DNA of 64,000 bases from Candidatus Pacearchaeota archaeon (GCA_041656875.1 JBBACR010000002.1:8084-72083); one strand, 5' to 3'; shown: positions 1,030 through 25,326, counted from the stretch's first letter. Numbers and translations are program-made. Notes: generated from the letters alone by a model not told the origin.

Positions 1030-2229
1030 TTACAAACCTAAAGATTCAACTAAGATTTCTCTAGATCTTTCCATTAAATTTTCAGGAATAGCCAGTTTAA
1101 TTTCTCTAGTCCTACCGTCTCTTCCTTTACTAATTACTCTTGCATTAATTAGTCCGAGCATATCAAATTCTGCTAGAATATCACTAACCCTTCTTTGAGT
1201 AAGAACATCAATACTAACTTTCTTACATAATTCTTGATAATAAGAATAAACATCTCCAGTAAATATATCTTCCTTAGAATTCTCGATAAGTTCTAAAATA
1301 GAGTAAAGAACTAACTGAAATTGTTTAGGTTCGGTTTCAATTATTTCAAGTATCTTATCTCTTTCAATTTTATCATTTGCATGGTCAATATGTTTTATTT
1401 CAATTTTAGGGTTTGACTCTCTTTCAGCAATTTCACCTGCAACTCTAAGTAAATCAAGGGCTCTTCTTGCATCTCCATGATCTCTTGCAGCAAAAGCAGC
1501 ACATTTTGCAATAACTCCCTCTGAAACCACATCAGGTTTAAATGCTTCATGAGCTCTTTTTCTTAAAATATCTTGTAACTGCATCGCATTATATGGGGGA
1601 AAGACTATTTCTTCTTCAGACAGAGAACTTTTAACTCTTTGATCAATCATATCTAAAAATCTTAAATCATTACTTATACCGATAATAATAATCTGTACAT
1701 TTTTAAGCTCTGAATTAAGTCTAGTCAAGTTATACAAGAATTCATCCGAAATCTTTTTAACTGCTTGGTCTATTTCATCAAGTACTAAGATAAATAGCTT
1801 TTCTTCATTATTTTCTAGTATTTCAAGAAACTTTAAGTAAACTTGATCTGTAGGCAGGCCAGTTGAAGGAACACTTCCACCTAATTTTTTTATGAGTTCG
1901 GCTAAAATCCTATATTCAGTATCTGCAACTTTTTTGAGTTTGCAATTTAAATATTCTACTCGTAATAATTTAGAATCTTTAGACCTTTCAGATAATTGGT
2001 TGGCAACATGAAGTACAGAAAGAGTTTTACCAGTTCCGGTTTTCCCATAAATAAAGATGTTACTAGTTTTTTGCCCAAGTAGACTGGGTGCAAGTATAGA
2101 TGCTATTTGTTCAATTTGTTTATCTCTATGAGGAATATCTCCCGGAGAATAATTTGATTGAAGAATTTGCTTATTTTTAAAAAGACTCCTTGTACCAACA
2201 GAATCAAATATTTTGTCAAGTTCAGTCAT
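1030..2229 (-). CDS. cdc6: Orc1/Cdc6 replication initiator (AAA+ with C-terminal winged helix)
   Basis: Walker A GKTGTGKT and Walker B LVLDEID. The length (399 aa) and C-terminal wH region are typical, and the gene sits next to an AT-rich ORB-containing spacer. Confidence 0.95.
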   Translation of the reverse strand: MTELDKIFDSVGTRSLFKNKQILQSNYSPGDIPHRDKQIEQIASILAPSLLGQKTSNIFIYGKTGTGKTLSVLHVANQLSERSKDSKLLRVEYLNCKLKKVADTEYRILAELIKKLGGSVPSTGLPTDQVYLKFLEILENNEEKLFILVLDEIDQAVKKISDEFLYNLTRLNSELKNVQIIIIGISNDLRFLDMIDQRVKSSLSEEEIVFPPYNAMQLQDILRKRAHEAFKPDVVSEGVIAKCAAFAARDHGDARRALDLLRVAGEIAERESNPKIEIKHIDHANDKIERDKILEIIETEPKQFQLVLYSILELIENSKEDIFTGDVYSYYQELCKKVSIDVLTQRRVSDILAEFDMLGLINARVISKGRDGRTREIKLAIPENLMERSREILVESLGL

Positions 2230-2312
2230 CTTTTTCCTCTTTTTATAAAACTAATTTAATTAAGATAAAACAATAACTAGAGTTTATAAATATAATTATA
2301 CTTAAAGAAATA

Positions 2313-2337
2313 CTCACCCCTATTTCCTATGAAATAG
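2313..2337 (-). repeat. ORB-like box a
   Basis: Minus strand reads CTATTTCATAGGAAATAGGGGTGAG: a dyad-like TTCA-TA-GGAAA followed by a G-string. Confidence 0.6.
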
Positions 2338-2404
2338 TAATAAATTAAAGGTAAACCTTCGAGTTTTTAGTAAAATAATAAAATTTATTTAAAAAAACTC
2401 CTTA

Positions 2405-2433
2405 CCCCTCACACCTTCTTTTCTAGTGGAGAA
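2405..2433 (-). repeat. ORB-like box b
   Basis: Minus strand reads TTCTCCACTAGAAAAGAAGGTGTGAGGGG: CTCCA-CT-AGAAA with a distal GGGG. Confidence 0.5.
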
Positions 2434-2440
2434 TTATAAT

Positions 2441-2575
2441 AATCTAATGCTTATTTTTTATACAATTAATAATAAAAATCAAAATAAATAATATATATAC
2501 TATATTATATATATTATATTATATATATTATATATATATATATATTTATAAATAAAAAATAGAAAAAGAAAAGTA
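2441..2575. other. Candidate duplex unwinding element (DUE)
   Basis: About 130 nt that are almost exclusively A/T, including tatattatatatattatattatatatattatatatatatatatat. It lies between oppositely oriented ORB boxes. Confidence 0.6.
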
Positions 2576-2599
2576 ATCTTTAACTTGATTATATAAACA

Positions 2600-2628
2600 C
2601 TTCCATAAGAAATAATAGGGGGAGGGGG
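2600..2628 (+). repeat. ORB-like box c
   Basis: Plus strand reads CTTCCATAAGAAATAATAGGGGGAGGGGG: TTCCA-TA-AGAAA plus a long G-string. It is inverted relative to boxes a and b. Confidence 0.6.
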
Positions 2629-2767
2629 TAAACCTTATTTTATTTAATATATTATTACTTATTTGATTATATTTATTATTATAAGATTAATTAATTAACA
2701 ATAAATATTAATTAAAATATAAGATTTATGCTCGAGGTTTTTAATATATAAACTTACCACAGAAAAC

Positions 2768-2775
2768 TTTATAAA
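2768..2775 (+). promoter_or_regulatory. TATA box for the PRC-barrel gene (leaderless-type spacing)
   Basis: tttataaa centred about 26 nt upstream of the ATG at 2797. Confidence 0.45.
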
Positions 2776-2796
2776 GAATTTTATTATATTTAACCT

Positions 2797-3057
2797 ATGG
2801 CTATTGAAAAAAAACCACATAAAGAGATAATAAACAAGCCGGTAGTTACAAAAGAGGGCAGAAAGTTAGGTGTAATTAAAGATATAACTTTTGAGACAAG
2901 AACTGGTGAATTAATTCACATTGTTTTAAAAGACTCAACACCTTATTCAAATCAGCTTAATCTTGAAAGATCTCAGGAAAGAGAAGTATTAATACCCTAT
3001 AATTCTATAATTGCTATAGGTGATTTTGTTGTTGTTTCTGAAGAAGATTTAATTTAA
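2797..3057 (+). CDS. PRC-barrel domain protein
   Basis: 86 aa. VVTKEGRKLGVIKDITFETRTGELIHIVL and IPYNSIIAIGDFVVV resemble small archaeal PRC-barrel proteins. Confidence 0.6.
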   Translation: MAIEKKPHKEIINKPVVTKEGRKLGVIKDITFETRTGELIHIVLKDSTPYSNQLNLERSQEREVLIPYNSIIAIGDFVVVSEEDLI

Positions 3058-5083: not shown

Positions 5084-5156
5084 GTTTTTTGTCTAATTGT
5101 TTACTATTTGTCTGTCTTTTTATCTGTCTGTTGGAATCCAACAGTCAGTTAGACAG

Positions 5157-9194: not shown

Positions 9195-9461
9195 ATGAGA
9201 CTTAGTAAAGATAAAAAAGATAAGATAGCTGAACAGATTCTTTCATTCTTATATCATAGTTTTCCTACTGAACCATTTACTGCAGAAATTGCAAGAGAAG
9301 TAGTAAGAGATGAGGAATTTATCAAAAGGATCCTATTTGAATTAAAGGATAAAAACCTAGTCCTTGCTATAAGAAAAAATAACAAAGGGGACCTATTCTC
9401 AAGGAGACTTAAATGGAGACTTTCAAATAAAGTCTATGATGCCTATAGGTCAAGGCAGTAA
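9195..9461 (+). CDS. Small winged-helix-like protein
   Basis: 88 aa. The helix-rich IAEQILSFLYHS...FIKRILFELKDKNLVLAIRKN pattern resembles a small wHTH. The assignment is weak. Confidence 0.4.
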   Translation: MRLSKDKKDKIAEQILSFLYHSFPTEPFTAEIAREVVRDEEFIKRILFELKDKNLVLAIRKNNKGDLFSRRLKWRLSNKVYDAYRSRQ

Positions 9462-9522: not shown

Positions 9523-10293
9523 ATGGAAAAAGAGCAGATTAAATTAGCTTTCTCAAAAGTAAAACAAGATATGCTTATTTTAGAGAATGAAGTATCAGCC
9601 CTAAGATTAGAAGTTTCTGAGCTCAATTCTCTAATTAGGACTCTTTCTGAAGAATTAACTCATCAAAGATTACAGGAAATAGCCTATCCAACAGATACTA
9701 ATTCGGTTTTATCCTCGATAACTCCAACAGACAGTCAGACAATCCAACAGATAAACCCAACATTAGACAGTTATCCAACAGACAGTCAGACAGTTCCACA
9801 GGAAATAGAGGGGTTAAAAACCCATTATTTTGATACTTCCACAGGAAATAGAGGGGTTCCAACAGACAGACAGACAGTTAGACAGACAGACCAACAGACA
9901 GAAAACAAGGTATTTTTGCCTTATTCAGAGGCTAGTAACTCTACCAGCATTGAGGCAAATATACAAGAGGCTTCTGAGATTTTAAACTCCCTAGATCGCT
10001 TAAAAAAGGAAATAAGGCTAAAATTTAAGAACCTTACAAGCCAAGAAATGCTTGTTTTCTCGACGATATATCAGCTTGAAGAGAATGATCCTCAAAATAA
10101 TACCTATAATCATATAGCTTTTATCCTTCATTTAAGTGAAAGCTCTATTCGAGATTATGTACAAAAAATGATTAAAAAAGGCATCCCAATTAAGAAAAAC
10201 AAGATAAACAATCGAAAGATTCTCTTGTTTATTTCTCAGGATTTAAAGAAAATAGCCACTCTGCCAACGATTATTAAGCTAAGAGAGCTTTAA
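9523..10293 (+). CDS. Coiled-coil / repeat-linker / C-terminal winged-helix protein (paralog of 10943..11569)
   Basis: N-terminal heptad-like region (LENEVSALRLEVSELNSLIRTLSEEL). A PTDSQT-type repeat linker. A C-terminal wHTH-like region (LTSQEMLVFSTIYQL...SESSIRDYVQKMIKKGI). Confidence 0.6.
   Translation: MEKEQIKLAFSKVKQDMLILENEVSALRLEVSELNSLIRTLSEELTHQRLQEIAYPTDTNSVLSSITPTDSQTIQQINPTLDSYPTDSQTVPQEIEGLKTHYFDTSTGNRGVPTDRQTVRQTDQQTENKVFLPYSEASNSTSIEANIQEASEILNSLDRLKKEIRLKFKNLTSQEMLVFSTIYQLEENDPQNNTYNHIAFILHLSESSIRDYVQKMIKKGIPIKKNKINNRKILLFISQDLKKIATLPTIIKLREL
9794..9815 (+). repeat. ORB-type box, copy 1 (inside the CDS linker)
   Basis: TTCCACAGGAAATAGAGGGGTT. It fits the dyad-plus-G-string architecture of archaeal origin recognition boxes. 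Confidence 0.6.
9837..9858 (+). repeat. ORB-type box, copy 2 (identical, 43-nt period)
   Basis: Identical 22-mer TTCCACAGGAAATAGAGGGGTT. Confidence 0.6.
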
Positions 10294-10445
10294 CCCCTAA
10301 TAAATCAAAATTTAAGGTTTTTAAGCCTTTTTAGCCTTATTTAATCTATTCCTTATTTGTTCTTTTTAGACCACTTCAGAGCTTTTATTTCTAAAACTCC
10401 TCATAATTTTTTGTTTTTAAGTTCGGTGTAACGAATTTAAACAAG

Positions 10446-10470
10446 TCCTAGCTACGGCTAGGATTTTTTT
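10446..10470 (+). terminator. Hairpin plus T7 tract
   Basis: tcctagc-tacg-gctagga (7-bp perfect stem, 4-nt loop) followed by ttttttt. It lies about 150 nt downstream of the stop at 10293. Confidence 0.35.
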
Positions 10471-10735
10471 ATCAATTTATCAATTTTTCACAAGCCTTAA
10501 AAACCTAAAATATTGAGTTTTTAAGACTTAAACACTTAATTACTTACTTAAATGTTTGAGCTTTTCCAAACTCTATTTTTTTACTTTTTTAAGCTTTTTT
10601 GACTTGGTTTTCCACTCACTTTTTGATTGAATATACAGTTTGACTTCATTTTTTAATCCTCTTATTTGGGCTCAGCTCTATTTTTCTCACTTTTTGACTG
10701 AAATTAATGATTTTTTGTTGTTTTTTCATATTAGT

Positions 10736-10752
10736 TAACTCTCACTTTTCCG
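10736..10752 (+). repeat. 17-nt direct repeat, copy 1
   Basis: taactctcacttttccg, repeated exactly at 10829..10845. Related ctcacttttt words occur near 10613 and 10686. Confidence 0.7.
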
Positions 10753-10828
10753 ATTTTTAGGGGTTTTTTGAGCTTTTTTCCATAAAAAACCATTGTTTTT
10801 TAGTGTTTTTACCCTATTGTATCTAGGC

Positions 10829-10845
10829 TAACTCTCACTTTTCCG
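10829..10845 (+). repeat. 17-nt direct repeat, copy 2
   Basis: taactctcacttttccg, identical to 10736..10752. Confidence 0.7.
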
Positions 10846-10942
10846 TTTTTTTAAGCCTTTTTGCTTATTTTTAGCCTATTTTATTGTTTTTTGCTTATTT
10901 TTTAGGACTTTTTGTCTTTTTCTTAGTTATTATTGCCTATTA

Positions 10943-11569
10943 TTAATCTATTTCCAGGTCTTCATTTTTATTTCTTTTTTTAACTCTATCTTTTATCTTT
11001 TTACTTTTGAGTAATATATCTTTAACTTTTTCAGGAATATAGACTCTTTTTTTATTATTTTCTCCAATAATTTCTTCAATTAATCCTTCATTTTTTTGCC
11101 TTATATTATTTATTTGGCCCCTAACTGTTGCTTTATCTTTTCCAAGCATTGCAGCTAGATCTTCATAAGAAAGTTTCATGTCTGAATTAAGTAAAACAAA
11201 GATTATTGCCCTTTCAGTTGTAGATAAATTGTCTAAAAATGTTGTTTGAACAGCTGTTTGAACGCCGTTTAAAACACTAGAAACAGGTGTCTGTTTACTA
11301 AACACTGTTTGCCTTTGTTTGAAAACTGGTCGTTCTCCCACAATAGAAAGAATATTTTTAAGGCTTTCAAGCTCTTCTTTAACCGAAGCTAATTCTTCAT
11401 GTAGGTCAAAAATATCATCTTTTAGCTTAGAATCTTCAGTGTCTAGGTGTTTGACCCAAGTACCTAAACTGTTTATATCATGTTTAGAGCTGTTGAAGCC
11501 TGTTTGAACAGCCTGTTTAAGTTGTTCAACTTCTCTTTTTTCAGCTTTTTTTGTAAAAAATCCAAACAT
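10943..11569 (-). CDS. Coiled-coil / linker / winged-helix protein (paralog of 9523..10293)
   Basis: N-terminal coiled coil (DIFDLHEELASVKEELESLKNIL). A QT-rich linker. A C-terminal wHTH-like region (LSTTERAIIFVLLNSDMKLSYEDLAAMLGKDKATVRGQINNIRQK). Confidence 0.6.
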   Translation of the reverse strand: MFGFFTKKAEKREVEQLKQAVQTGFNSSKHDINSLGTWVKHLDTEDSKLKDDIFDLHEELASVKEELESLKNILSIVGERPVFKQRQTVFSKQTPVSSVLNGVQTAVQTTFLDNLSTTERAIIFVLLNSDMKLSYEDLAAMLGKDKATVRGQINNIRQKNEGLIEEIIGENNKKRVYIPEKVKDILLKSKKIKDRVKKRNKNEDLEID

Positions 11570-11762
11570 AATGTAATTAAAAAATGATTATTTATAAACC
11601 TTACGATTCACCATATGCAAATACCTGTTCAAACACCAGTTTATCGTCGTGAAAATTTTTTTTTGAACACTGTTTGAACACTAGTATTTTTTTCATTTTT
11701 TCATTAAATTTTTTAAAAATATGCTCTCTAGATAAAACATGCTTTAAAATATCTCAAAAATA

Positions 11763-11783
11763 GGGTGTTTGAACAACTTGAAA
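11763..11783 (+). repeat. 21-nt inverted repeat, left arm
   Basis: gggtgtttgaacaacttgaaa is the exact reverse complement of 13339..13359. Confidence 0.8.
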
Positions 11784-11925
11784 TTGATTATTTTTTAACA
11801 AAAAGCTAAAATAAATGTCCTAAAATGCTTAAAATTAAGCCAATTATTACACTACAAAGATGCCTTCGGTCATAGTTAAAAATTAAACAAAAACCGCTTA
11901 ATTTTTTTAATAAATAACTAGCTAG

Positions 11926-11962
11926 AAATAGCTTAATTTTTAATCAAAAATAGCTTAATTTT
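11926..11962 (+). repeat. Tandem 22-nt-period repeat (aaatagcttaatttt x2)
   Basis: aaatagcttaatttt at 11926..11940 and again at 11948..11962. A related ccgcttaattttt lies near 11894. Confidence 0.6.
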
Positions 11963-12413
11963 GATAAATTAATCAAAAATAATGAATTTTTTAGCAATTT
12001 CAAACTTCGTTTTTTGTTCAATAATAAGCTTTAAATACGAAAAAAACCTCTACTTTCTAACCAAATTTAACTAAAATAAGCTAAATTATTAATAAAGATC
12101 CGCTTATTTTGAACTGTTCAAAAGGACCAAAACCCATGATTATCCGCTGGCCCTAAACTCTAGAAATCACTTTAAACTAGATATAATAGTTGGCAGAATA
12201 ATTGCATTATTTCATGCTATAAGGTATCCTATCATTTTCCATAAGACTAGCTTCCTTGCAAGATCCTAACCCTATGCCAAAAGTTAGGGTCTTCGCAACC
12301 TCCTAAAAGTAAGCAAAAACATAAGCGTAATGCTAAAAACTTTTAGCATAGGCAAAATCAATCAAAAATATCACAATCATAATTTCAAAAAAATCTGAGG
12401 AAAAAGAAATAAA

Positions 12414-12449
12414 TTTCCTATTTAGTTACAGGAATAAGTAAATAGGAAA
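12414..12449. repeat. 11-bp palindrome with 14-nt spacer
   Basis: tttcctattta (12414-12424) pairs with taaataggaaa (12439-12449). The right arm, ATAGGAAATAAGGTGA, resembles ORB box a. Confidence 0.5.
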
Positions 12450-12472
12450 TAAGGTGAAATAAGTAAGAAAAA

Positions 12473-12497
12473 GAAACGAAACGAAACGAAACGAAAA
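12473..12497 (+). repeat. Pentanucleotide tandem repeat (GAAAC)x4 + GAAAA
   Basis: gaaacgaaacgaaacgaaacgaaaa, inside a ~200-nt almost pure-purine tract (12420-12625). Confidence 0.8.
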
Positions 12498-12625
12498 ATT
12501 AGAAAGGTAGGTAGCCTAGGGTAAATGGGCAAGGTAAAAAGACGAAAAAAGGTAGGTGGCCTAAAGTTAGCTAGAGGCCAGCCAAAAAAGGCAAGAAAGG
12601 AAAACTAAACAAAAAGGAGGCAAAA

Positions 12626-12865
12626 ATGGAAAAAATAGATCCAATAATAAAAGATCTTGGAGCTAGTGCAATGGCTTTAAGACTGCAGGAATCATGTACT
12701 TGTAGCAGGGTTAGTTACAAACATGTTGGTCTTTTTCTAATTCTAATTCTAGTTTTAGTACTAGCATCTCAAAGAACTTTTATTTTTCCAGCTATTGTTC
12801 CACAACTGCTTGCGATTTTAGTTAGTACATCCTTTATAGATAACAGGGAAAAAAGACCCAAATAA
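12626..12865 (+). CDS. Small membrane protein (hypothetical)
   Basis: 79 aa with a hydrophobic core (VGLFLILILVLVLA...). A strong aggagg sits 7 nt upstream of the ATG, which is unusual in this otherwise leaderless-looking window. Confidence 0.45.
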   Translation: MEKIDPIIKDLGASAMALRLQESCTCSRVSYKHVGLFLILILVLVLASQRTFIFPAIVPQLLAILVSTSFIDNREKRPK

Positions 12866-13009
12866 ATATCATGATTAAATTATGATTAATTCATGATTTT
12901 AATTTAGCCTCACAACCTAAGTTATAAAAAAACAACATTTATTTTTTTATTTTTCAACCTAGTTATAAATCCAATAAATAAAGCGACATTATGCGAACCT
13001 TTTTAAGAT

Positions 13010-13031
13010 AAACCCCTTCATTTCCTATGAA
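13010..13031 (-). repeat. ORB-like box in the island
   Basis: Minus strand reads TTCATAGGAAATGAAGGGGTTT. It shares the 13-mer atttcctatgaaa with oriC box a (2321-2333). Confidence 0.5.
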
Positions 13032-13106
13032 AAAAGTACGCTTTTTCATCTTTTTTTAAAATTTATTTTCAAAAGCTTTAAAAGTTAAGTTCATTTTATA
13101 GGTATT

Positions 13107-13328
13107 ATGAAAAGAGATAAAGAGCCAGATTTTTGTGGGGTTTGCTCTCCCTCATGTAGTAATTATATGTACATACAACAAGAGTGTTGGTCAAAGGTAG
13201 TCAGGTTACTAGATACTAAAGGCCAACCAGTTCAGTTAGGAGATCCCTGTCTTTATCCCGGAACCTATGAAACATCCCATTTCTATAAAAATATCCATCC
13301 AAAATCCCGGGATAAAAGGCATTACTAG
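13107..13328 (+). CDS. Cys-rich mini-protein (paralog of 13473..13682)
   Basis: 73 aa. It shares the pattern C-G-x-x-C ... C ... GDPC-x-Y with the neighbouring ORF. Confidence 0.5.
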   Translation: MKRDKEPDFCGVCSPSCSNYMYIQQECWSKVVRLLDTKGQPVQLGDPCLYPGTYETSHFYKNIHPKSRDKRHY

Positions 13329-13338
13329 GTTTGACTAG

Positions 13339-13359
13339 TTTCAAGTTGTTCAAACACCC
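13339..13359 (+). repeat. 21-nt inverted repeat, right arm
   Basis: tttcaagttgttcaaacaccc is the exact reverse complement of 11763..11783. Confidence 0.8.
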
Positions 13360-13441
13360 CTTTATCGAGGGTAAAATCACCAAAACAAACACCTTCTAAA
13401 CAGCTTAAAAACAGTCAAAAACCCCTGTTTAAACACCCTAA

Positions 13442-13452
13442 TTTTTATAAAT
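13442..13452 (+). promoter_or_regulatory. TATA box
   Basis: tttttataaat centred about 26 nt upstream of the ATG at 13473. Confidence 0.45.
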
Positions 13453-13472
13453 CCTGTGCCCATCCACTACTT

Positions 13473-13682
13473 ATGGGTGAGATAAGAATTTGTGGGCCTG
13501 AATGTGAACACTTCCTTAAAGACAGAGATGATTTTTATAGATGTGCAAAGATAGAAGTTTACTTAGATATTCATGTAAGAGCAGGAGATCCCTGTAAGTA
13601 CGAAGTGCAGCCTAAAATATCTTTAGGTGGACTCGAGTCTTTGGGTGAAGGTATTTTTCTCGGCCGTATTAGGGGATTTTAA
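13473..13682 (+). CDS. Cys-rich mini-protein (paralog of 13107..13328)
   Basis: 69 aa with ICGPECEHF...RCAK...AGDPCKYE. The Cys/GDPC spacing pattern matches the upstream ORF. Confidence 0.5.
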   Translation: MGEIRICGPECEHFLKDRDDFYRCAKIEVYLDIHVRAGDPCKYEVQPKISLGGLESLGEGIFLGRIRGF

Positions 13683-13696
13683 TATTATTTGATCTA

Positions 13697-13761
13697 GCAG
13701 TAACTTTTTAGCTTTTATCAAAAGTTTTTGCATATATAAAAATCTACTTTTAAACACTACA
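13697..13761 (+). repeat. 65-nt repeat family, copy R1
   Basis: gcagtaactttttagcttttatcaaaagtttttgcatatataaaaatctacttttaaacactaca. Confidence 0.8.
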
Positions 13762-13843
13762 CACAACTCAAAAATAGTAGTTAGACACTACAAGCCAGCT
13801 TAAAAAAAGAAAAATATAAAAAGGGTTTTTTGATGAAAGTAAG

Positions 13844-14269
13844 ATGGTTGAAAATAGAAAACGAAGAACACTTGCAGAATGCTTAATGCAGGGTGGAATA
13901 AAAGAAATTACATTTAGAAGATCTTACCTTTTAGGAACAAGAGCGGGCGATGAACTAAATCCCATTTTTGAGAATTACTCTTACAAAGTTATCTCCTTAG
14001 GTTGTGAAGTGGAATGCGAAAGGGACAGATTTGGAAGATCAAACCCCCCCTATATTGCAAAGACTATGATGTTGGTTAGATTTGTATATCCAAATTCTGC
14101 TTTAGGTACAAATGAAGAACTAAATGTTGCAAGGCACCTGGATAATTTAGAATGGTTTGAGTCAGATGCTAAAGATGATATCTATGCCGGCGAAGAATTA
14201 GTAAGATTTGGAAATTCATGGAAAAAAAGTTCCCTACCCAGCCCATCTAATAGTTCATGTTTTCAATAA
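13844..14269 (+). CDS. Hypothetical protein
   Basis: 141-aa ORF. I recognise no domain. Composition looks GC-richer than the flanking core genes. Confidence 0.45.
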   Translation: MVENRKRRTLAECLMQGGIKEITFRRSYLLGTRAGDELNPIFENYSYKVISLGCEVECERDRFGRSNPPYIAKTMMLVRFVYPNSALGTNEELNVARHLDNLEWFESDAKDDIYAGEELVRFGNSWKKSSLPSPSNSSCFQ

Positions 14270-14378
14270 AACCCCTGTTTTTTGGCCTAAAAAAGCTCTT
14301 GTTTTCCTAAAGCAACTTTCCCCTTGCAAAGGTTCGTACAAGATATATTATGCGAACTAAGGCAGAAATCCAATCTAT

Positions 14379-14443
14379 GCAGCAACTTCTTAGCTTTTCT
14401 TAAAAGTTTTTGCATAGGTAAAAACAGGCTTTTGAACACTACA
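14379..14443 (+). repeat. 65-nt repeat family, copy R2
   Basis: gcagcaacttcttagcttttcttaaaagtttttgcataggtaaaaacaggcttttgaacactaca. Confidence 0.8.
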
Positions 14444-14489
14444 AAAACACAAAAAAATAAAAAAGTAGTGTTTAAAATTGGAAAATTTT

Positions 14490-14777
14490 TTATCGAGATT
14501 TTTCCCTACTTAGTCTAATTGATAAAAAAACTATAAGAAAAAGAATTAACAAATCTGCCGCAAAAATCAAAATACTTATTATTCCCGATTGATGACCCCC
14601 CATCCAAAAAAGTAAATATGGCCAAAAAACAGCTGCAGCTACTGAATCATCAACATATGTTCCAGAATTTTCAATAAACATCCATAGTCCTAAAATAATT
14701 CCGACAAATAGATATAACCCTATTAATGTTAAAGGTAGTTTAATCACTCTCTTCATAACTAATTTACTCACCTCCAT
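14490..14777 (-). CDS. Small multi-pass membrane protein (hypothetical)
   Basis: 95 aa with three hydrophobic segments (LIGLYLFVGIILGLWMFI, AAAVFWPYLLFWM, ISILIFAADLLILFLIVFL). Confidence 0.5.
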   Translation of the reverse strand: MEVSKLVMKRVIKLPLTLIGLYLFVGIILGLWMFIENSGTYVDDSVAAAVFWPYLLFWMGGHQSGIISILIFAADLLILFLIVFLSIRLSREKSR

Positions 14778-14857
14778 CTTATAAATCTTTGCATTACCAA
14801 CCCCTTAAGAAATAAATTTGGTTGCTTTTAGCTCCAAATTTAGACATTTCTACCTTA

Positions 14858-14921
14858 GCAGCAACTTATTAGCTTTTCTTAAAAGTTTTTGCATAAGTAA
14901 CCTCGCCATTTAAACACTACA
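14858..14921 (+). repeat. 65-nt repeat family, copy R3
   Basis: gcagcaacttattagcttttcttaaaagtttttgcataagtaacctcgccatttaaacactaca. Confidence 0.8.
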
Positions 14922-14993
14922 AACTTTGTTCAAACAACTGTTTTTAGCTGCTTGTAGTGTCTAAACAAACACCTAAACTTTCTTAAACACGGT

Positions 14994-15173
14994 TTAACCA
15001 AAAATATCTTTTGTTAGAAATATTGTAGCTACAAGAAGTATTAATGATATGATTGATCCTCTTCTACCAACATCCCGAAGTAAGTTAAGATTCTTCTTCT
15101 TCCCAAGATAGTAAGCTCCTAAACATACAAATAAAAACGCAATAAATAAGATCTTAATCTCCATTGTTTCCAT
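14994..15173 (-). CDS. Small two-TM membrane protein (below the ORF-track cutoff)
   Basis: My translation: METMEIKILFIAFLFVCLGAYYLGKKKNLNLLRDVGRRGSIISLILLVATIFLTKDIFG (59 aa). Confidence 0.35.
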   Translation of the reverse strand: METMEIKILFIAFLFVCLGAYYLGKKKNLNLLRDVGRRGSIISLILLVATIFLTKDIFG

Positions 15174-15353
15174 ATTTCAAATAGGCTTTTTTGGTTTTTA
15201 AAGCTTTACCCTTGCTTAAAAGTTTTTAGCAAAATCTCCCATCTTTTGCCTTTAAAAAGCTTGCGAAAATGCCTAAAATTTATAATATTTTACCCATTTT
15301 ATCGTCGATAAAATCCTTAACTTACTTTAACTAAATTTTTCTTTTTTGTTAGA

Positions 15354-15899
15354 TTAATGAGTAGATATAACCTTACACACTCTACCTTTTTCAAGATGTC
15401 TAACTAACCCCTTCATTAATTGAAGATGGCTTTCATAATCAGAAATCCTATTTTCATATCTTCTTCTTTCAAGAGCATCAGTTGTCTCGGCCATTGCCAT
15501 CTTAAGAGTGTTCATATCAGCCATAGTAACCTTTTGTCTTGCAAGATAGTAATCTAACCATAATTGGACTTCGTCCCTAGTGTTTAATGTATTAGGGCCA
15601 TTTTGTTCATATCCAATTACAAAAGGTTCAAGTCCGCCCAGGTCTTTGGCAGCTATTTCTCCAAAATTTTGTCTGTCTAGATTTAACTCAAGAACCCTGG
15701 CTTTTTTACCATACTTGAGCGCTTTTTCTGCATGTCTTTCTCTAAGTAACACAGTTTTAGCAGAAGTTGAGTAAGCAGTATGAACCTTTTTAAGTGCCAA
15801 ATAAGCTTCTCGTCTGTCTTCTTCACTCTGGTTTTCACTATGTCTTTCTTTGTAAAATTTGCCAATTACAGTGTATTGTTTTCCAAGTTTAGCTCTCAT
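15354..15899 (-). CDS. Hypothetical protein (helical, charged)
   Basis: 181-aa ORF. The two overlapping track ORFs (15580..15774 and 15683..15865) are shadows of it. No domain recognised. Confidence 0.5.
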   Translation of the reverse strand: MRAKLGKQYTVIGKFYKERHSENQSEEDRREAYLALKKVHTAYSTSAKTVLLRERHAEKALKYGKKARVLELNLDRQNFGEIAAKDLGGLEPFVIGYEQNGPNTLNTRDEVQLWLDYYLARQKVTMADMNTLKMAMAETTDALERRRYENRISDYESHLQLMKGLVRHLEKGRVCKVISTH

Positions 15900-16012
15900 T
15901 AGTAAGTAAAATTTGATAGTTCTAAATGTCTAAAATAATATAGTTTAGAAGTAAAATCTTTAAGAAAAATTGCTTTTTAAACCTTCTGAATCTGTTTTTA
16001 AGTTTGTAAAAT

Positions 16013-16147
16013 TTACACTTTGTAGTTATATTCGTCTTTATCTGGAGGATTCTGACATTTAGGACAAACCAGAATATAGTCATCTCCTACCTTTTCCACC
16101 CTCATATGTTCTAAACACTTTTCACAATGATCTCGAAGAAACACCAT
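16013..16147 (-). CDS. Zinc-ribbon mini-protein (below the ORF-track cutoff)
   Basis: My translation: MVFLRDHCEKCLEHMRVEKVGDDYILVCPKCQNPPDKDEYNYKV (44 aa; CxxC...CxxC). Confidence 0.4.
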   Translation of the reverse strand: MVFLRDHCEKCLEHMRVEKVGDDYILVCPKCQNPPDKDEYNYKV

Positions 16148-16306
16148 AAAATACTTGCTCACTATTTTTTATTCACTCTTTTGTTTTTTAATAACAAAAA
16201 TTTAGTTTTTAAAGATATCTAAAAATTTGAAAGTTGACCCATATGTTTTTATACCCCCTTTTTCTAAGTTTTATATCATTAGTAGAACGGAGGAAAGACG
16301 AACAAA

Positions 16307-16648
16307 ATGGAAGAATTTAGAGACAGAGAAATGCATAAAGCAACCTGTTCTGACTGTGGACAAGCATGTGAAGTGCCGTTCAAACCTACAGAAGGTAAAC
16401 CAGTTAGATGCCAGGATTGTTTTAGAAAAAGTAGACCACCAAGAAGCAGCGGAGGCGGAAGATTCGGCGGAAGAAGTAATTTCGGCGGACCAAGAAGAAG
16501 CTTCAACGACGGGCCTAGAGAAATGCATAAAGCAGTTTGTGCCGAATGTAAGCAAGAATGTGAAGTACCATTCAAACCTACAGAAGGTAAACCAGTTTAT
16601 TGCAAAGATTGTTTCCAAAACAGAAGAAACAATCAAGAAGAATTCTAG
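16307..16648 (+). CDS. Tandem CxxC-x17-CxxC zinc-finger protein with RGG-like linker
   Basis: Two copies of REMHKAxCxxCxxxCEVPFKPTEGKPVxCxDCF, separated by SSGGGRFGGRSNFGGPRRSF. The other three long ORFs over this locus are frame shadows. Confidence 0.8.
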   Translation: MEEFRDREMHKATCSDCGQACEVPFKPTEGKPVRCQDCFRKSRPPRSSGGGRFGGRSNFGGPRRSFNDGPREMHKAVCAECKQECEVPFKPTEGKPVYCKDCFQNRRNNQEEF

Positions 16649-16864
16649 TTTTTTATTAGAATAATTCTTTATCAAACACTTTTATTTTTATTTTTTTTAT
16701 TATACTTTCTTTTTTTATTCACTCGTGATGTAATTCTCTTTGATTAAAGATAGATGCCTTAATTTTATTATTTGGTTTATAGTCTATTCTTCACAAGATT
16801 TACTTTTGAAAATAGATTTATATACAGGTTCGCACAATTAAGTTTATTAAAAGAGGATAAAGTA

Positions 16865-17683
16865 ATGAACCAGCAAGAATTTCTCAAAAATCTAGAAACT
16901 GAAATTAAGATCGCAAAACTTTCTCCCTATACTATTCGTAACTATGTTGAATTCAACAAACAGCTATTATCGCACTCAGGCAAGGAGCCTGCAGATATCC
17001 AACAACAAGACATTAAAAATTTTTTAGCAGATAAAATGAACGATCGTGCATCATCTTCGACTATTGTTTGTTTAGCCTCTATAAGGTTTGCATATCTGGC
17101 TCTTTTAAATAAAGACCCTACTGTTGGAATAAAGCGTCCAAGATCTGAAAAGAAAATTCCTCAAGTCTTAACAAAAGAAGAAGTAATAAGATTAATCAGT
17201 TCATCTTCAACAATAAAAAGTAAGCTTCTTACTCAAATACTTTATTCTTCAGGCCTACGAGTATCTGAATTAGTTCGCCTTAAAAAACAAGATTTAGACT
17301 TTAATGAAAATATTGGTTGGGTAAGGGGTGGAAAAGGGAAAAAAGATAGAATGTTTATTTTATCAAAAAAACTCTCAGCAAGATTAAAAAAATATATAGA
17401 TAAACATCCAGACTGGAATTATATTTTTTCAGAAAACAGTCCACTAACAACTAGAAATATTCAAAAGATTATTCAAAAATTAGCAAAAAAAGCAGGAATA
17501 AATAAAGATGTCCATCCCCATACCCTAAGACATAGTTTTGCAACCCATCTTTTGGACGCAGGGACTGATTTGAGAAAGATTCAGACCCTCCTGGGTCATA
17601 GCAGTATAGCTACAACTCAGATTTATACTCATATTTCAAGTGAACAAATAAAATCAATTAAAAATCCTCTAGATGAATTATAA
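16865..17683 (+). CDS. xerA: Tyrosine recombinase, XerA/XerCD-like (or element integrase)
   Basis: C-terminal HPHTLRHSFATHLLDAGTDLRKIQTLLGHSSIATTQIYTH (the R..H-x-x-R..Y catalytic pattern). The start is moved to the ATG at 16865 (MNQQEFLKNLE), because the track's N-terminal 31 aa look non-genic. Confidence 0.85.
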   Translation: MNQQEFLKNLETEIKIAKLSPYTIRNYVEFNKQLLSHSGKEPADIQQQDIKNFLADKMNDRASSSTIVCLASIRFAYLALLNKDPTVGIKRPRSEKKIPQVLTKEEVIRLISSSSTIKSKLLTQILYSSGLRVSELVRLKKQDLDFNENIGWVRGGKGKKDRMFILSKKLSARLKKYIDKHPDWNYIFSENSPLTTRNIQKIIQKLAKKAGINKDVHPHTLRHSFATHLLDAGTDLRKIQTLLGHSSIATTQIYTHISSEQIKSIKNPLDEL

Positions 17684-20581: not shown

Positions 20582-21349
20582 ATGGTGCTATACTCTCATT
20601 CACGACTTTCAACATTTGAACAATGTCCATTGAAATTTAAGTTTAGATATATTGATAAATTGGAGCCAGAAATAAAACAATCAATAGAAGGTTTTCTCGG
20701 AAATAGAGTTCATGACACTTTGGAGTTTATTTATATAGAATCTTGTAAAGGAAGAACCCTTGAACTTGATGAAATAATTGAGTTTTATATTCAGGTCTGG
20801 AACAAAGAATATTCAAACGAAATTAAAGTAATAAAACAAGAATTAACTGCAGAGCATTATTTTGAAAAAGGAATTAAATTTTTAATTGATTATTTTACAG
20901 CAAACTATCCATTTAAAGACAATACTATTGCAGTTGAAAAAAGAATAATTCTTGATTTGGATCCAAGTCAACCTGGAAAATATAAACTCCAAGGCTATAT
21001 TGATAGACTCGTTCATAATAAAGATTCGAATATTTTTGAAATCCATGACTATAAAACAGGACAAATAAAAACTCAAGAAGAACTGGATAAAGACAGGCAA
21101 CTCGCTTTATACTCTCTTGGAATAAAAGAGTCTTTTCCAGAAGCAGCAGACATTCATCTTATCTGGCATTTTCTTGATTTTAATAAAAAGATGCAGTCGA
21201 AAAGAACAGACGAGGAATTAATTCAGTTAAAACAGGACATAATCAATCTTATAACCAAAATAGAATCTACAACAGATTTTCCTGCCTGTCCAAGTATTTT
21301 GTGCAAGTGGTGTGAATTTCAGGGTTATTGTGATTATAAACCTGAATAA
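20582..21349 (+). CDS. PD-(D/E)XK nuclease, Cas4/RecB-like with 4-Cys Fe-S cluster signature
   Basis: N-terminal Cys (FEQCPLKFKF). Nuclease motifs GYIDRL, EIHDYKTG and QLALYS. C-terminal C-x2-C-x5-C (CKWCEFQGYC). Confidence 0.85.
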   Translation: MVLYSHSRLSTFEQCPLKFKFRYIDKLEPEIKQSIEGFLGNRVHDTLEFIYIESCKGRTLELDEIIEFYIQVWNKEYSNEIKVIKQELTAEHYFEKGIKFLIDYFTANYPFKDNTIAVEKRIILDLDPSQPGKYKLQGYIDRLVHNKDSNIFEIHDYKTGQIKTQEELDKDRQLALYSLGIKESFPEAADIHLIWHFLDFNKKMQSKRTDEELIQLKQDIINLITKIESTTDFPACPSILCKWCEFQGYCDYKPE

Positions 21350-21539
21350 ACCTATTAAAAACTTAAGAACTTTTAAAGTAACTTAAGTTTTTTAGCTAAA
21401 TTGTTAATCTTTGAAATAATCCTCCTCAGATAATGAGTTTCTTGCCTGGATATATGTTTCATAACTTTTTAATTTAAAAGAGGTGAGTATGCGAGCCTCT
21501 AATGATTCTCCTTACATTACTAATACTTTAGTATCCTCC

Positions 21540-21564
21540 TAAGAATTTTGCACACAAATTCTTA
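21540..21564. promoter_or_regulatory. Perfect 9-bp inverted repeat upstream of the helicase promoter
   Basis: taagaattt-tgcacac-aaattctta. A TATA-like ttttatattt lies at 21581-21590 and the ATG at 21616. Confidence 0.3.
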
Positions 21565-21615
21565 AATACTCTATCCTACATTTTATATTTCTAAAAAAGG
21601 TTTTTAAATTTTAAT

Positions 21616-23547
21616 ATGTGGTCACTTTATGAAGATGAAAAAGCATTGCAGCCATTGGTTTTTTCAAATGGAAAATCTCAGGCAGATGTAGTTAACGAAG
21701 TTATAGAAGCAATTGAAAAAGGAAGCAAGATAGTTTTTATTCGCGGTCAATGTGGAACAGGAAAGTCAGCAATTGCCCTTAATTTAGCAAGAAAATTTGG
21801 AAAAACTTCTATTGTTGTTCCAATAAAATCTCTTCAAGAACAATATATTAAAGATTATTCTGAAAATAAATATGTTCTCTTAAATGGAAAAAGACTAACA
21901 ATCCAGCCAATTCTTGGAAGGCAGAATTTTAAATGTAAATATCTCGAAGAAGAAGATATTAAGGGCATTGAAAAATATTCTAGGGAAAAAGATGCAAACC
22001 TTTTTGAAAGTCTTGCCGAAAGTTCAAGACCAAATAAAGCTAAGACTGACACCTGTGATAATACTTATCTTCCATGCAAAATAGAAATAAAAGAAAGAAA
22101 CCTTTCTGTACTTAAAGAATATATTAAAAAAAATCCATTGGTCAATATTTCAAATTTTGATTCTATTGATGATATAAAAAGAATAACTGTTGCACCTGTC
22201 TGCGAGTATTGGTCACCAATTGTAGCAGAAGAGTTTGAAACAAAAAGGTTCAAAGATGCAATTAAAAAAAGTTACACTGGAATAAACAAGAAAAAATATG
22301 CCTTTTATCAAAGAAAATCAGGTTGCCCTTACTATAATCAGTATAATGCCTACATTGATGCAGATGTCATAATTTTCAATTCTCTAAAATACAAAATTGA
22401 AAGCATGATGGGAAGAAAACCTGCAACAAATATTGAGATAATTGATGAATGTGATGAATTTTTAGATAGTTTTGCAGAACAAGCACAGATTAATCTTTCA
22501 AGGCTATCCTTTTCTCTTAATATGATTCATTCTTCAGAACCTAGAATAAAACAGACAATCGATAAGTTAATTGATATAACCAATGCAATTAAGGCTTCTG
22601 AAAAATTAAAAGAGTCAGATGAAATTTATGAACTAAATAATACTCTTATTCAGGAATTATTACTTGCAGTTCTGGAAAATCCAGACCTGCTAGATTTAAT
22701 TGAATCAGATGACCATAATTATTTAATTCATTTAGACCAGGTTGCAAAAACTTTTTATGATTTTATGGATGAAACTTTTTTCTCTGTTGAAAAAAGAGAA
22801 AATGATAAAATAATAACTTTAGTAACAACAAACCTAGATAAGCAATTAAAAACAATGGTAGATAATAATAAGGTTGTTGTAATGATGTCTGGAACAATTC
22901 ATTCTGAAATGGTCTTAAAAAATATTTTTGGTCTGGATACATTCAAGGTAATTGAAGCAGAAATAGAGCATCAGGGAGAATTAATAAAATGCAAACATGG
23001 TTATGAAGTAGATTGCAGTTATTCAAATTTTAAGTCGAAAAGACTCACTAGGGAGACCTATCTAAAAGCTCTTTCAAAATCAATAAGTTGTGCAAAATCT
23101 CCAACACTTGTTCATGTCAATTCTTTTTCAGATCTTCCGACAGATCAGGAAAAAGCTCAGTTTAATCTGGAGAATCTTATAACTCAAAGGGAATTAATAG
23201 AACAGCAAAACAATGACCCGACAGCCAAGAGAGTAAGGGAGTTTAGAGATAAAAAAACAAAAATATTGTTCACAACAAAATGTAATAGAGGGGTTGATTT
23301 TCCAGGTGACATATGTAATAGTATTGTTATCACAAGATTTCCTTATCCAAATATCTCCAGCATTTTTTGGAAAATCTTAAAGAGAAACAAGCCTCAGCAT
23401 TTTATGTCATTTTATATGGATAAATCAAGACGAGAACTCATGCAGAAAGTCTACCGGGGCCTAAGAAGTAAAGATGACAAGGTTTACTTGCTCAGCCCTG
23501 ATAAAAGAGTGCTTGACTTTAAGTTTGAGAACGAAGTTAAGAAATAA
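21616..23547 (+). CDS. XPD/DinG-superfamily (Fe-S) helicase-like protein
   Basis: Walker A GQCGTGKS and a DECD box (IIDECDEF). Cys residues lie between them, including GCPYY (XPD-like Fe-S domain). The C-terminal NRGVDFPGD...ITRFPYP matches the helicase C_2 type. Confidence 0.7.
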   Translation: MWSLYEDEKALQPLVFSNGKSQADVVNEVIEAIEKGSKIVFIRGQCGTGKSAIALNLARKFGKTSIVVPIKSLQEQYIKDYSENKYVLLNGKRLTIQPILGRQNFKCKYLEEEDIKGIEKYSREKDANLFESLAESSRPNKAKTDTCDNTYLPCKIEIKERNLSVLKEYIKKNPLVNISNFDSIDDIKRITVAPVCEYWSPIVAEEFETKRFKDAIKKSYTGINKKKYAFYQRKSGCPYYNQYNAYIDADVIIFNSLKYKIESMMGRKPATNIEIIDECDEFLDSFAEQAQINLSRLSFSLNMIHSSEPRIKQTIDKLIDITNAIKASEKLKESDEIYELNNTLIQELLLAVLENPDLLDLIESDDHNYLIHLDQVAKTFYDFMDETFFSVEKRENDKIITLVTTNLDKQLKTMVDNNKVVVMMSGTIHSEMVLKNIFGLDTFKVIEAEIEHQGELIKCKHGYEVDCSYSNFKSKRLTRETYLKALSKSISCAKSPTLVHVNSFSDLPTDQEKAQFNLENLITQRELIEQQNNDPTAKRVREFRDKKTKILFTTKCNRGVDFPGDICNSIVITRFPYPNISSIFWKILKRNKPQHFMSFYMDKSRRELMQKVYRGLRSKDDKVYLLSPDKRVLDFKFENEVKK

Positions 23548-23583
23548 AAAAAGTTAAAATAAAGTCTTGAGATAAGATTTAAA

Positions 23584-23727
23584 TTAATCTTGGTGACAAC
23601 CAATATCTCCTCTTACATAGATTCCTTCTTTGCCTTCTTCTTCACACATAGAATTTTTGATTTTATGTATGTCTTCAGCTATGGACTGGATAGCTTCTAT
23701 CAATAATTCTTCAGTTTCTGGTTTCAT
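23584..23727 (-). CDS. Small hypothetical protein (below the track cutoff)
   Basis: My translation: MKPETEELLIEAIQSIAEDIHKIKNSMCEEEGKEGIYVRGDIGCHQD (47 aa). Confidence 0.25.
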   Translation of the reverse strand: MKPETEELLIEAIQSIAEDIHKIKNSMCEEEGKEGIYVRGDIGCHQD

Positions 23728-23915
23728 TTTTTACCTCCTTTTTAATTTTTCTTAAAACATTTCTAACAAATTATTTAATTTTGTTTTAAAATAATTATTA
23801 TACTCAAAATAGGCTATTTTTATTACGACTAATTTAATAAATGGGGTTTGTAACTTATAATAAATGTACTTATAGAAATAATCCACAACTTTTTAAGTTA
23901 ATCAATGGCCCAACC

Positions 23916-24254: not shown

Positions 24255-24514
24255 ATCAAATGCTTTTTCTTAAGATACTTTTCAACACCCTCAGGATCCC
24301 ATATCCAACCAATCTTTCCTTCACTATCAACTGCGATTCTTCCAGCATAAAGAAGGTAGTCAATAATAACTGAATAGGTTTGATACATCATTTTCTTTGG
24401 AAGTTTCTCCCAGATCTTTTTTTTGCCATAATGTCCACTATTATCATAGATAAATTTTTCAACCATTAAGACACTATCGAGTCTAGGATAATGTAATATT
24501 TTTTTTATTTCCAT
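24239..24514 (-). CDS. Putative cognate antitoxin (family not recognised)
   Basis: 91-aa ORF translationally coupled (16-nt overlap) to the toxin-like gene. Confidence 0.45.
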   Translation of the reverse strand: MEIKKILHYPRLDSVLMVEKFIYDNSGHYGKKKIWEKLPKKMMYQTYSVIIDYLLYAGRIAVDSEGKIGWIWDPEGVEKYLKKKHLMWKSK

Positions 24515-25259: not shown

Positions 25260-25326
25260 AAGTAATGACTAAACATATAATTTATTTAATAGATCTGTTT
25301 AAATATTCTCAATTATTATTTTTTTC

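Follow-up and report, generated by a model that had tools for sequence, protein, structure and literature searches.

The DNA that encodes the linkers of two convergent, paralogous genes, here called A and B, is on balance likely to serve also as cis-acting protein-binding sites embedded in the linker codons. The genes lie in a 64,000-nucleotide (nt) stretch of a Candidatus Pacearchaeota genome (GCA_041656875.1, JBBACR010000002.1:8084-72083; hereafter the window), which is AT-rich (~30% GC) and belongs to a DPANN archaeon. Support comes from recurrent DNA motifs, from DNA-level constraint on codons, from the identity of two intragenic motifs with the origin recognition boxes (ORBs) of the replication origin (oriC), from synteny with the initiator gene orc1, and from copies of the same words outside the genes. 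Homologs of the genes occur in genomes labelled Pacearchaeota, Woesearchaeota or Nanoarchaeota. The locus was compared with 80 related loci (L001-L080) and the near relatives L081 and L082, and motifs were counted over 1.24 Mb. The convergent A/B pair is kept in 78 of the 80 loci, and the remaining two stop at a contig edge. A sequence-only reading of the window had proposed both open reading frames, a common architecture, and linkers built from DNA words that recur in nearby non-coding DNA. Both frames exist as described and its observation was confirmed, while its interpretation is partly supported.

9523..10293, + strand: gene A, 256 amino acids (aa) (open reading frame; 2296 homologs; AlphaFold2 model)
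10943..11569, - strand: gene B, 208 aa (open reading frame; 897 homologs at 65-98% identity; AlphaFold2 model)
9688..9905, + strand: DNA-constrained part of the A linker (codon entropy, word positions)
9794..9815, + strand: ORB1, TTCCACAGGAAATAGAGGGGTT, read as (V)PQEIEGL
9837..9858, + strand: ORB2, the identical 22-mer in another frame, read as (T)STGNRGV
9862..9902, + strand: (ACAG)n tract encoding TDRQTVRQTDQQT (Tandem Repeats Finder: period 4, 10.2 copies)
11243..11263, - strand: pair of B words at a distance of 12 nt (coding strand: GTTCAAACA gct GTTCAAACA), translated as VQTAVQT in the B linker
11501..11510, - strand: B word encoding AVQT in the N-terminal region of B (word search; codon alignment; profile alignment)
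1030..2229, - strand: orc1/cdc6 initiator gene, the reference for A and B (Pfam Cdc6_C 2.6e-28, Cdc6_lid 3.4e-26, AAA domains)
2230..2796: canonical oriC, adjoining orc1 (read from the sequence and from ORB pattern matches)

Codon-aware alignments of 80 A genes and 76 B genes showed that the linkers are the most conserved DNA in each gene, and that codon choice is almost fixed there and nowhere else. At residues conserved in at least 80% of the sequences, mean codon entropy in A was 0.24 bits in the linker and 1.32 bits in the rest of the gene (p = 2e-9); the corresponding values for B were 0.31 and 1.06 bits (p = 2e-5). The lowest entropy over six columns was 0.10 bits in A and 0.31 bits in B, compared with 0.75 bits for orc1 and 0.92 bits for a neighboring 88-aa gene, the two same-locus controls. 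The linkers had been called variable and of low complexity, which the alignments contradict: across 80 homologs they are among the most conserved stretches, with the near-invariant peptides TVPQEIxGLK and STGNxGVPTDRQTDRQTDQQT in A and AVQT, KQT and VQTxVQT in B.

Codon fixation in the A linker reaches 94-100% for ACA, 85-100% for CCA, 100% for GTT, 95-96% for GGG, 96% for TCC and 100% for GGA. GAC is used at 100% although GAT is preferred elsewhere, and CAG at 93-95% although CAA is preferred elsewhere. The VQTxVQT columns of B have GTT at 92% and CAA at 99%; ACA makes up 76% of the codons at residue 105 and all of them (100%) at residue 109. The sequence-only reading had named codon bias for common peptides as a possible refutation, but such bias does not account for this, because the fixed codons include the non-preferred GGG, TCC, GAC and CAG as well as the TCG of a subset of genomes (S-type, defined below). 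Codon bias with peptide-level conservation was rejected on account of these non-preferred codons, of a 22-mer that is read in two frames, and of the controls, which lack the effect. The near-invariant synonymous sites indicate selection at the DNA level, and each paralog does, as had been suggested, contain motifs within its own coding sequence that recur outside genes.

Origin recognition boxes within gene A

The A linker contains an exact 22-nt repeat, TTCCACAGGAAATAGAGGGGTT, at 9794 and 9837, and no third copy was found in the window even with three mismatches allowed. Both translations of the 22-mer are family-wide peptide motifs. Because the same 22-mer is read in two frames, these two "conserved peptide motifs" are one DNA element, a warning for motif-based annotation of disordered regions. 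The distance between ORB1 and ORB2, 43 nt or about four helical turns, is constant across the family. Both boxes of the window carry the TTCC...GAA dyad core (TTCCACAGGAAAT at 9794 and 9837). An ORB followed by (ACAG)n was present in 81 of 81 genes examined, and the most distant members, at 41-46% protein identity, still have an ORB followed by GTTCCAACAGACAGAC.

The oriC of the window has ORBs on the - strand at ~2314-2333 (TTCATAGGAAATAGGGGT) and ~2403-2430 (pattern matches at 2333- and 2430-) and on the + strand at 2602-2630 (pattern match 2602+). Its (TA)n unwinding element is at ~2440-2590, and the 100-nt GC minimum of the whole window, 3%, is at 2451. The A/B pair is 7.3 kb from this oriC. 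Among the 42 related loci with at least 9 kb of flank, 35 have orc1 upstream of A on the other strand, at a distance of 1.5-9.4 kb with a median of 5.8 kb.

A loose ORB pattern (T[CT]CA, 2-3 nt, GAAA, 2-14 nt, GGGG) searched in the 1.24 Mb matched 112 times inside A genes, 33 times adjacent to orc1 and 7 times elsewhere. The orc1-adjacent matches, 18 on the minus and 15 on the plus strand, form inverted pairs around an AT-rich element. A perfect TCC-N3-GGA is present in 101/112 gene-A boxes but in only 7/33 oriC boxes, and so the gene-A boxes are closer to the canonical dyad. The G-string GGGG(T) stands 3' of the core at a fixed gap of 4 nt in 76 of the 112 gene-A boxes and at 2-3 nt in 31. 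The sequence features that identify ORBs are thus present: a dyad core, a 3' G-string, and the same motif around the unwinding element by orc1 in the same genome. The gene-A boxes are not, however, inverted around an AT-rich element as the ORBs of an origin are; 109/112 are on the sense strand of A and form direct repeats. A mobile or viral source for the module of ORB2 and (ACAG)n was considered and rejected, as the module had no match in viral contigs.

ORBs within or near genes have precedents, and the sequence-only reading went too far in knowing of no described system with this layout. In the Thermococcales, the gene for the PolD small subunit, dp1, contains an ORB3/mini-ORB cluster that has been kept throughout the order (Matsunaga et al. 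2007, PMC1904270). In Pyrococcus, Cdc6/Orc1 occupies in vivo a region that includes this cluster, ORB3 is bound by Cdc6 in vitro, and Cdc6 binding depends on the TTCC and GAA cores (PMC1904270). The ORB likeness of the gene-A boxes is supported because they have these same cores. Like gene A, dp1 is a coding gene near orc1/oriC with ORBs in a lineage-conserved arrangement. Unlike dp1, which is adjacent to orc1, gene A lies several kb away and encodes a winged-helix DNA-binding protein, its boxes are in a disordered linker, in two frames and among other word arrays, and its neighbor is a paralog with different words.

A second comparison is oriC2D of Haloarcula hispanica, a 722-bp intergenic region that adjoins cdc6E on its downstream side, carries 11 ORBs and titrates Cdc6E (Wu et al. 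2014, PMC3936714); ORB-rich titration that restrains an origin in Haloarcula is also described in PMC4010727. As in oriC2D and Escherichia coli datA, for which negative control by titration was proposed, the locus has several initiator boxes outside the core origin and near the initiator gene (two boxes, at a median of 5.8 kb from orc1). The haloarchaeal oapABC genes, of unknown function, are likewise kept beside orc1/oriC across a lineage (PMC7002104). They abut the origin whereas A and B are a few kb away, they bear no apparent sequence relationship to the pair, and embedded motifs are not reported for them. In Sulfolobus, a nucleoid protein binds an essential origin motif (PMC12141716). Our literature search on ORBs or origins in DPANN, Pacearchaeota or Nanoarchaeota found nothing. 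What is new here is the DNA-binding host gene, boxes in two frames that define "protein motifs", an interleaved second class of words whose variants go with those of an extragenic site, a paralog with its own words, and conserved spacer arrays.

Two further observations concern ORBs and oriC. An ORB-like TTCATAGGAAATGAAGGGGT at 13012-13031 (-) lies in non-coding DNA 1.5 kb past gene B and is directed toward the gene-A boxes; near relatives have TCACAGGAAATGAGGGGG in its place, and an equivalent is absent from most other loci. On the side of oriC opposite orc1 is an 86-aa PRC-barrel gene (2797-3057; Pfam PRC 4e-13), and L061 has a similar open reading frame in the same place beyond its own oriC.

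A words, B words and spacer repeats

The A linker holds a second class of motif. Words of the form CCAACAGA start at 9688, 9724, 9744, 9775, 9859 and 9891. With up to one mismatch, CCAACAGACAG occurs six times in the window against 0.39 expected, with copies in the A linker at 9724, 9775, 9859 and 9891. The other two form an inverted pair, 5124(-)/5138(+), in the spacer between lhr and a metallophosphoesterase (MPE) gene, where the sequence-only reading had placed the word. Across the 1.24 Mb, ACAGACAGAC was found 302 times in A genes and 5 times elsewhere, and CCAACAGAC 119 and 15 times, respectively. The linker layout is fixed: word, 12, word, 9, ORB1, 43, ORB2, 20, word, 20 or 32, word (distances in nt). 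Recombination-driven linker swapping, which the sequence-only reading had offered as an alternative, does not agree with the constant part of this layout across the family (ORB1, 43 nt, ORB2, 20 nt, word). Word spacing gives its strongest signal at a 10.5-bp period, which suggests that the sites lie on one face of the helix; since the loci share the layout by descent, this is not an independent statistic.

5084..5156: lhr-MPE spacer with GTCTGTC words, directly upstream of the MPE start codon at 5083

The lhr-MPE spacer contains the palindrome CTGTCTGTTGG-aat-CCAACAGTCAG at 5124-5148 and is flanked by the genes for Lhr (Pfam DEAD_assoc 1.7e-57, WH_Lhr 1e-34) and MPE. At least 10 loci have a partly palindromic cluster of A words 3.5-7 kb upstream of A, and it is in the lhr-MPE spacer wherever the genes are identifiable; equivalent spacer clusters occur in L001, L003, L006, L010, L013 and L020. 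The A word itself has two states, CCAACAGA (CCAAC) in 150 cases and TCGACAGA (TCGAC) in 57, with 15 intermediates, and genomes are nearly homogeneous. Genomes with CCAAC are termed P-type and those with TCGAC S-type; the S-type counterpart of CCAACAGAC is TCGACAGAC. TCG is an unlikely serine codon for an AT-rich genome. The state of the spacer word equals that of the gene, CCAACAG in 6/6 P-type loci and TCGACAG in 2/2 S-type loci (L004 and L010), eight loci that are phylogenetically non-independent. The match is suggestive of word variants in the gene body and outside it tracking each other, and the CCAAC/TCGAC switch would offer a handle on the co-evolution of protein and site.

Words of this class also occur within orc1. 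CCAACAGAC encodes the P-T-D of the conserved Orc1 motif GLPTDQ in L006, L017, L029, L038 and L075, S-type loci included, and CCAACAGA lies antisense in the first codons of the window orc1, at 2195-2202. These occurrences may be due to chance.

Gene B has words of its own, which recur upstream of the gene and beyond.

11626-11637(-), 11671-11680(+), 11764-11775(+): three B words upstream of the B start (word search)
13347-13358 (exact) and 13426-13437 (one mismatch), - strand: two non-coding B words (word search)
14927..14938, - strand: non-coding B word GTTGTTTGAACA (word search)

TGTTTGAACA occurs eight times in the window against 0.25 expected, with seven of the eight within 11243-14936: two in gene B (11243 and 11501) and five in non-coding DNA (11626(-), 11671, 11766, 13347(-) and 14927(-)). 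The eighth is a coding copy at 34554. Exact copies of GGTGTTTGAACA are at 11626(-), 11764, 13347(-) and 34552. Among the related loci, B genes contain 180 copies of GTTCAAACA, all at fixed positions; 12 more lie in the 400 nt upstream of B, and the remaining 1.1 Mb has 46. In L081 and L082, whose DNA is 88-92% identical, the sequence around the B words upstream of B and at 13347 differs, but the words themselves are the same. The B word in nearby non-coding DNA, as first reported, is thus real in the window, but its upstream copies are conserved in only 10 of ~78 loci.

The spacer between the two genes carries a third set of repeats.

10294..10942: A-B spacer, G-poor on the + strand (median 413 nt and 8% G over 79 loci)
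10615..10842, + strand: four direct CTCACTTTT words (10615, 10686, 10741, 10834); family consensus TaACTCTCACTTTTcc followed by a T-run
10422..10434: palindrome TTCGGTGTAACGA, unique in the window and present in 41/79 spacers, flanked on each side by inverted repeats that can form hairpins

In 78 of 79 loci, the spacer has one to five direct copies of TaACTCTCACTTTTcc with a T-run, all in one orientation. The core CTCACTTT was found 177 times in 78/79 spacers against ~7 expected, with constant orientation, and in 64 loci an extra copy of the spacer word lies antisense in the C-terminal K-V-R codons of B (GTG 91%). These repeats may form an array of the iteron type, act as terminators or promoters, or be bound by the possible third winged-helix protein. 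Starting ~100 nt downstream of A (10384-10465), three conserved elements occur in 41/79 spacers: one hairpin (CAGAnnTTTT...AAAAnnTCCTCAT), a palindrome, TTCGKTRTAACGA, and a second hairpin of GCTA type. The hairpin stems differ in sequence among loci. RNAalifold on the 5' part of the spacer recovered only the invariant TCG/CGA palindrome stem, with no covariation. Mean folding z was ~-1.5 on both strands, a value that does not separate DNA palindromes from RNA hairpins.

The A and B proteins and their candidate sites

AlphaFold2 models, built on 20-sequence alignments, uphold the common architecture first read from the sequence: in each protein a long helix at the N-terminus is followed by a disordered middle part and, at the C-terminus, a winged helix. 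In A, a confident helix spans residues 2-54, residues 57-140 are disordered (predicted local distance difference test, pLDDT, ~33), and a helix and winged helix occupy residues 143-255 (pLDDT 80-91). B has helices at residues 6-40 and 47-79, disorder at 79-110, a winged helix at 104-177 and a C-terminal helix, with a pLDDT of 71-85 for residues 110-180. Both models show the winged-helix fold with flanking helices, as in the MarR family. The best Foldseek matches of the C-terminal domain were MarR/MepR/ST1710 for A (E = 1.7e-4 to 1e-3) and MepR/MarR/SmtB/AbfR2 (Lrs14-type) for B (E = 1e-4 to 1e-3). No Pfam or NCBIfam model scored above cut-off for A, B or the 88-aa gene; sub-threshold matches were to the generic HTH_24, HTH_11 and HTH_38, to Sta1/Lrs14 weakly for B (NCBIfam), and to DnaD_N and HTH_36 weakly for A homologs. 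A PDB sequence search with both family profiles returned nothing significant.

Profile comparisons identify A and B as distant paralogs of one family, in line with the paralogy proposed earlier. The probability was 83% for whole proteins (E = 8e-6), 95.5% for the N-terminal domains (E = 1.6e-8) and 72% for the C-terminal domains (E = 3e-5), with a weak pairwise BLASTP match (E = 0.02). The N-terminal AVQT copy of B falls in a four-residue insertion relative to A, and the profile alignment gap faces VQTG. No further paralogs or pseudogene copies of A or B were found in the window by tblastn. Derivation of the A/B winged helix from that of Orc1 was rejected, as the profiles showed no similarity (hhalign probability 1.3-1.4%). 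Neither protein matched a ParB-type family. No ParA/SegA-type ATPase was identified beside the pair, whose neighbors are Lhr/MPE, the 88-aa gene and small open reading frames, in a search that was not exhaustive and did not extend to ParA elsewhere.

We propose that nucleotide-level selection holds the linker DNA because it would serve as an array of protein-binding sites. The A array would comprise the ORB pair and roughly helically phased CCAACAGAC/(ACAG)n words, and the B array the GTTCAAACA words. The linker peptides VPQEIxGLK, STGNxGVPTDRQT and VQTxVQT would then be largely by-products of DNA motifs, which linkers of ~30-80 residues can tolerate because they are disordered. The N-terminal helix of each protein would be a coiled-coil oligomerisation helix. 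We consider it likely that the intragenic ORB pair binds Orc1/Cdc6, which is a more probable partner for these boxes than A itself. So bound, the pair may act as an auxiliary or initiator-titrating site, and its occupancy may form a transcriptional roadblock that couples initiator occupancy to A expression. The idea that the MarR-like domains of the two proteins use the A and B words as operators falls just short of an even prospect; A would act at its own gene and the MPE promoter, and B at its own gene, its own promoter and nearby small-gene promoters. The purpose may be to titrate the initiator, to form the roadblock, to regulate the two genes themselves along with a small regulon containing the MPE repair gene, or to take part in DNA architecture or segregation.

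A tentative extension of this proposal is an origin-proximal nucleoprotein hub in coding DNA. Orc1/Cdc6 would occupy a high-affinity ORB pair, A and B would nucleate on their own-gene words, on CTCACTTTT and on the palindrome, and the assembly would control initiation or segregation. If true, such a hub would be an archaeal counterpart of datA or parS-ParB. Binding sites embedded in coding DNA are familiar from parS inside parB/spo0J, lacO2 in lacZ and the purR operators, where a protein's sites lie in coding DNA and sometimes in its own gene near the origin. The arrays here differ in being multi-copy and in dictating a conserved peptide, and no ParB domain or ParA partner was found beside the pair. 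With MarR and Lrs14 proteins (AbfR2, Sta1) the pair shares the C-terminal fold in AlphaFold2/Foldseek comparison and a candidate palindromic operator with half-sites ~10 bp apart. A long N-terminal coiled coil and a linker of 30-80 residues are foreign to those families, and HMM cut-offs were not reached.

To our knowledge, nothing is known of replication control in DPANN archaea, whose episymbionts cannot be grown alone, and the conserved non-origin ORB pair with its word arrays is a concrete candidate for a replication-control element in this group. The locus is of interest for archaeal replication and for overlapping genetic codes alike. A DNA-level function that strongly shapes a protein sequence would be a natural test case for dual-coding constraint. 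If the binding-site reading is true, the linker peptide motifs are read-outs of cis-elements, and a regulatory code dictates protein sequence.

Several findings weigh against the binding-site reading. Which protein occupies which word we infer throughout, and all related sequences are metagenome-assembled genomes. The gene-A boxes have no unwinding element beside them (minimum 100-nt GC of 21-24%, against 3% at oriC), and they number two, both within coding sequence, compared with 11 in oriC2D. A non-coding spacer of 400-650 nt is present at the locus, and so a shortage of non-coding space cannot explain why sites would be intragenic. The lhr-MPE site is seen in closer relatives only, the variant match between gene and spacer comes from loci that are related by descent, and the upstream B words, although ~10-fold over background, are confined to a minority of loci. 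Residues 214-218 of the A recognition helix associate suggestively with word type, but this association is weak because it is confounded by phylogeny; R215 is found in 24/24 S-type loci and also in 22/53 P-type loci.

Four other explanations were weighed. One is a functional variant of the binding-site reading, not its opposite: A and B would be architectural, H-NS- or ParB-like proteins that nucleate on the words and organise or segregate the origin as a centromere-like or bridging complex, with the ORBs as a link to Orc1. The order of coiled coil, disordered linker and winged helix fits such a role, as do the Lrs14/AbfR2/Sta1 chromatin-like regulators nearest the B winged helix, the conserved place near oriC, the three classes of word array within ~2 kb, the roughly helical phasing of the words and, by analogy, parS inside spo0J/parB of Bacillus. 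We regard it as unlikely, given the missing ParB-type domain and the lack of an identified ParA/SegA-type ATPase beside the pair (a search that was not exhaustive), and the data do not separate an architectural from a regulatory role. The ORB pair, the iteron-like CTCACTTTT repeats and Rep- or WhiP-like A and B proteins might instead be a captured replicon, that is, a second or relic origin that fires or is accessory to oriC. The presence of ORBs, the single-orientation direct repeats in a T-rich spacer in 78/79 loci and the weak DnaD_N/HTH_36 matches of A homologs are in its favor, and integrated elements are the presumed source of extra origins in archaea (PMC4010727). The boxes are, however, direct repeats with no unwinding element nearby, and for this reason they do not look like a classical firing origin. 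The true oriC lies 1.5-9.4 kb away in the same genomes, the ORB2 and (ACAG)n pattern lacks viral-contig matches, and the A/B module is vertically conserved over the whole sampled clade. A second origin is quite improbable on this evidence.

Conservation of synonymous sites alone does not separate DNA from RNA, and the linkers could function in the mRNA or an antisense transcript, as a structure, a protein-binding RNA motif, a site of ribosome pausing or recoding, or a small-RNA target. Within the window, the antisense strand of the A linker does fold better than shuffled sequences (z = -3.1). The sense strand does not (z = -0.08), the mean z across 20 loci was ~0 on both strands, and no Rfam family matched; with no signal on either strand in the 20 loci, linker RNA structure was rejected. 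The words also occur outside genes in both orientations and as palindromes, as DNA sites would, and the ORB motif flanks the unwinding element of the origin, a DNA function. An RNA-level role is thereby very unlikely. The most sparing account, in which protein-level peptide conservation, codon bias and repeat homogenisation by slippage or gene conversion leave no nucleic-acid function, draws on the microsatellite-like look of (ACAG)n and the tandem VQT words, on the preference of an AT-rich genome for CAA, AAA and GTT, which are fixed in B, and on homogeneity of words within genomes such as gene conversion gives. It has to contend with the non-preferred fixed codons of A, with one 22-mer kept in two frames, with conservation that persists down to 41% protein identity in the flanking domains, and with linkers that are predicted to be disordered. 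The match of the motif to the oriC ORB, the extragenic copies that track the intragenic variant, and control genes free of such codon fixation also oppose it, and we give it hardly any credence.

Neighboring features of the locus

Other features lie on both sides of the pair. The gene immediately upstream of A may encode a small winged-helix protein that is co-transcribed with A.

9195..9461, + strand: 88-aa gene, immediately upstream of A (found by tblastn in 78 loci; adjacent and on the same strand in 70)

A tyrosine recombinase gene at 16772-17683 (+), with Phage_integrase (5.5e-48) and an N-terminal SAM-like domain, borders the gene-poor region 11570-16700 and could encode a chromosomal XerA or mark an integrated element. 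Further along, a DNA-metabolism cluster at 20582-26780 comprises a PD-(D/E)XK nuclease (20582-21349), an XPD/DinG-like helicase (21616-23547), a RadC-like JAB protein (24597-25259) and a D12-class adenine methyltransferase (25944-26780).

Rfam searches identified only tRNAs and 5S rRNA in the whole window, and nothing beyond a chance mir-95 match in 10200-15400. Non-coding DNA at 12101-12625 is 96% identical to L081/L082, above the flanking genes (78-95%). It holds an (AAACG)5 repeat at 12469-12496 and GC-richer segments, has no Rfam match, and may be an unannotated RNA gene. Direct repeats of 78 nt (GCAGCAACTTnTTAGCTTTTCTTAAAAGTTTTTGCATA...AACACTACA) are found at 13697-13774, 14379-14456 and 14858-14935, and also at 15206-15227, in a gene-poor stretch with small open reading frames. 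One copy abuts the B word at 14927, and the repeats look like repeated promoter or leader modules.

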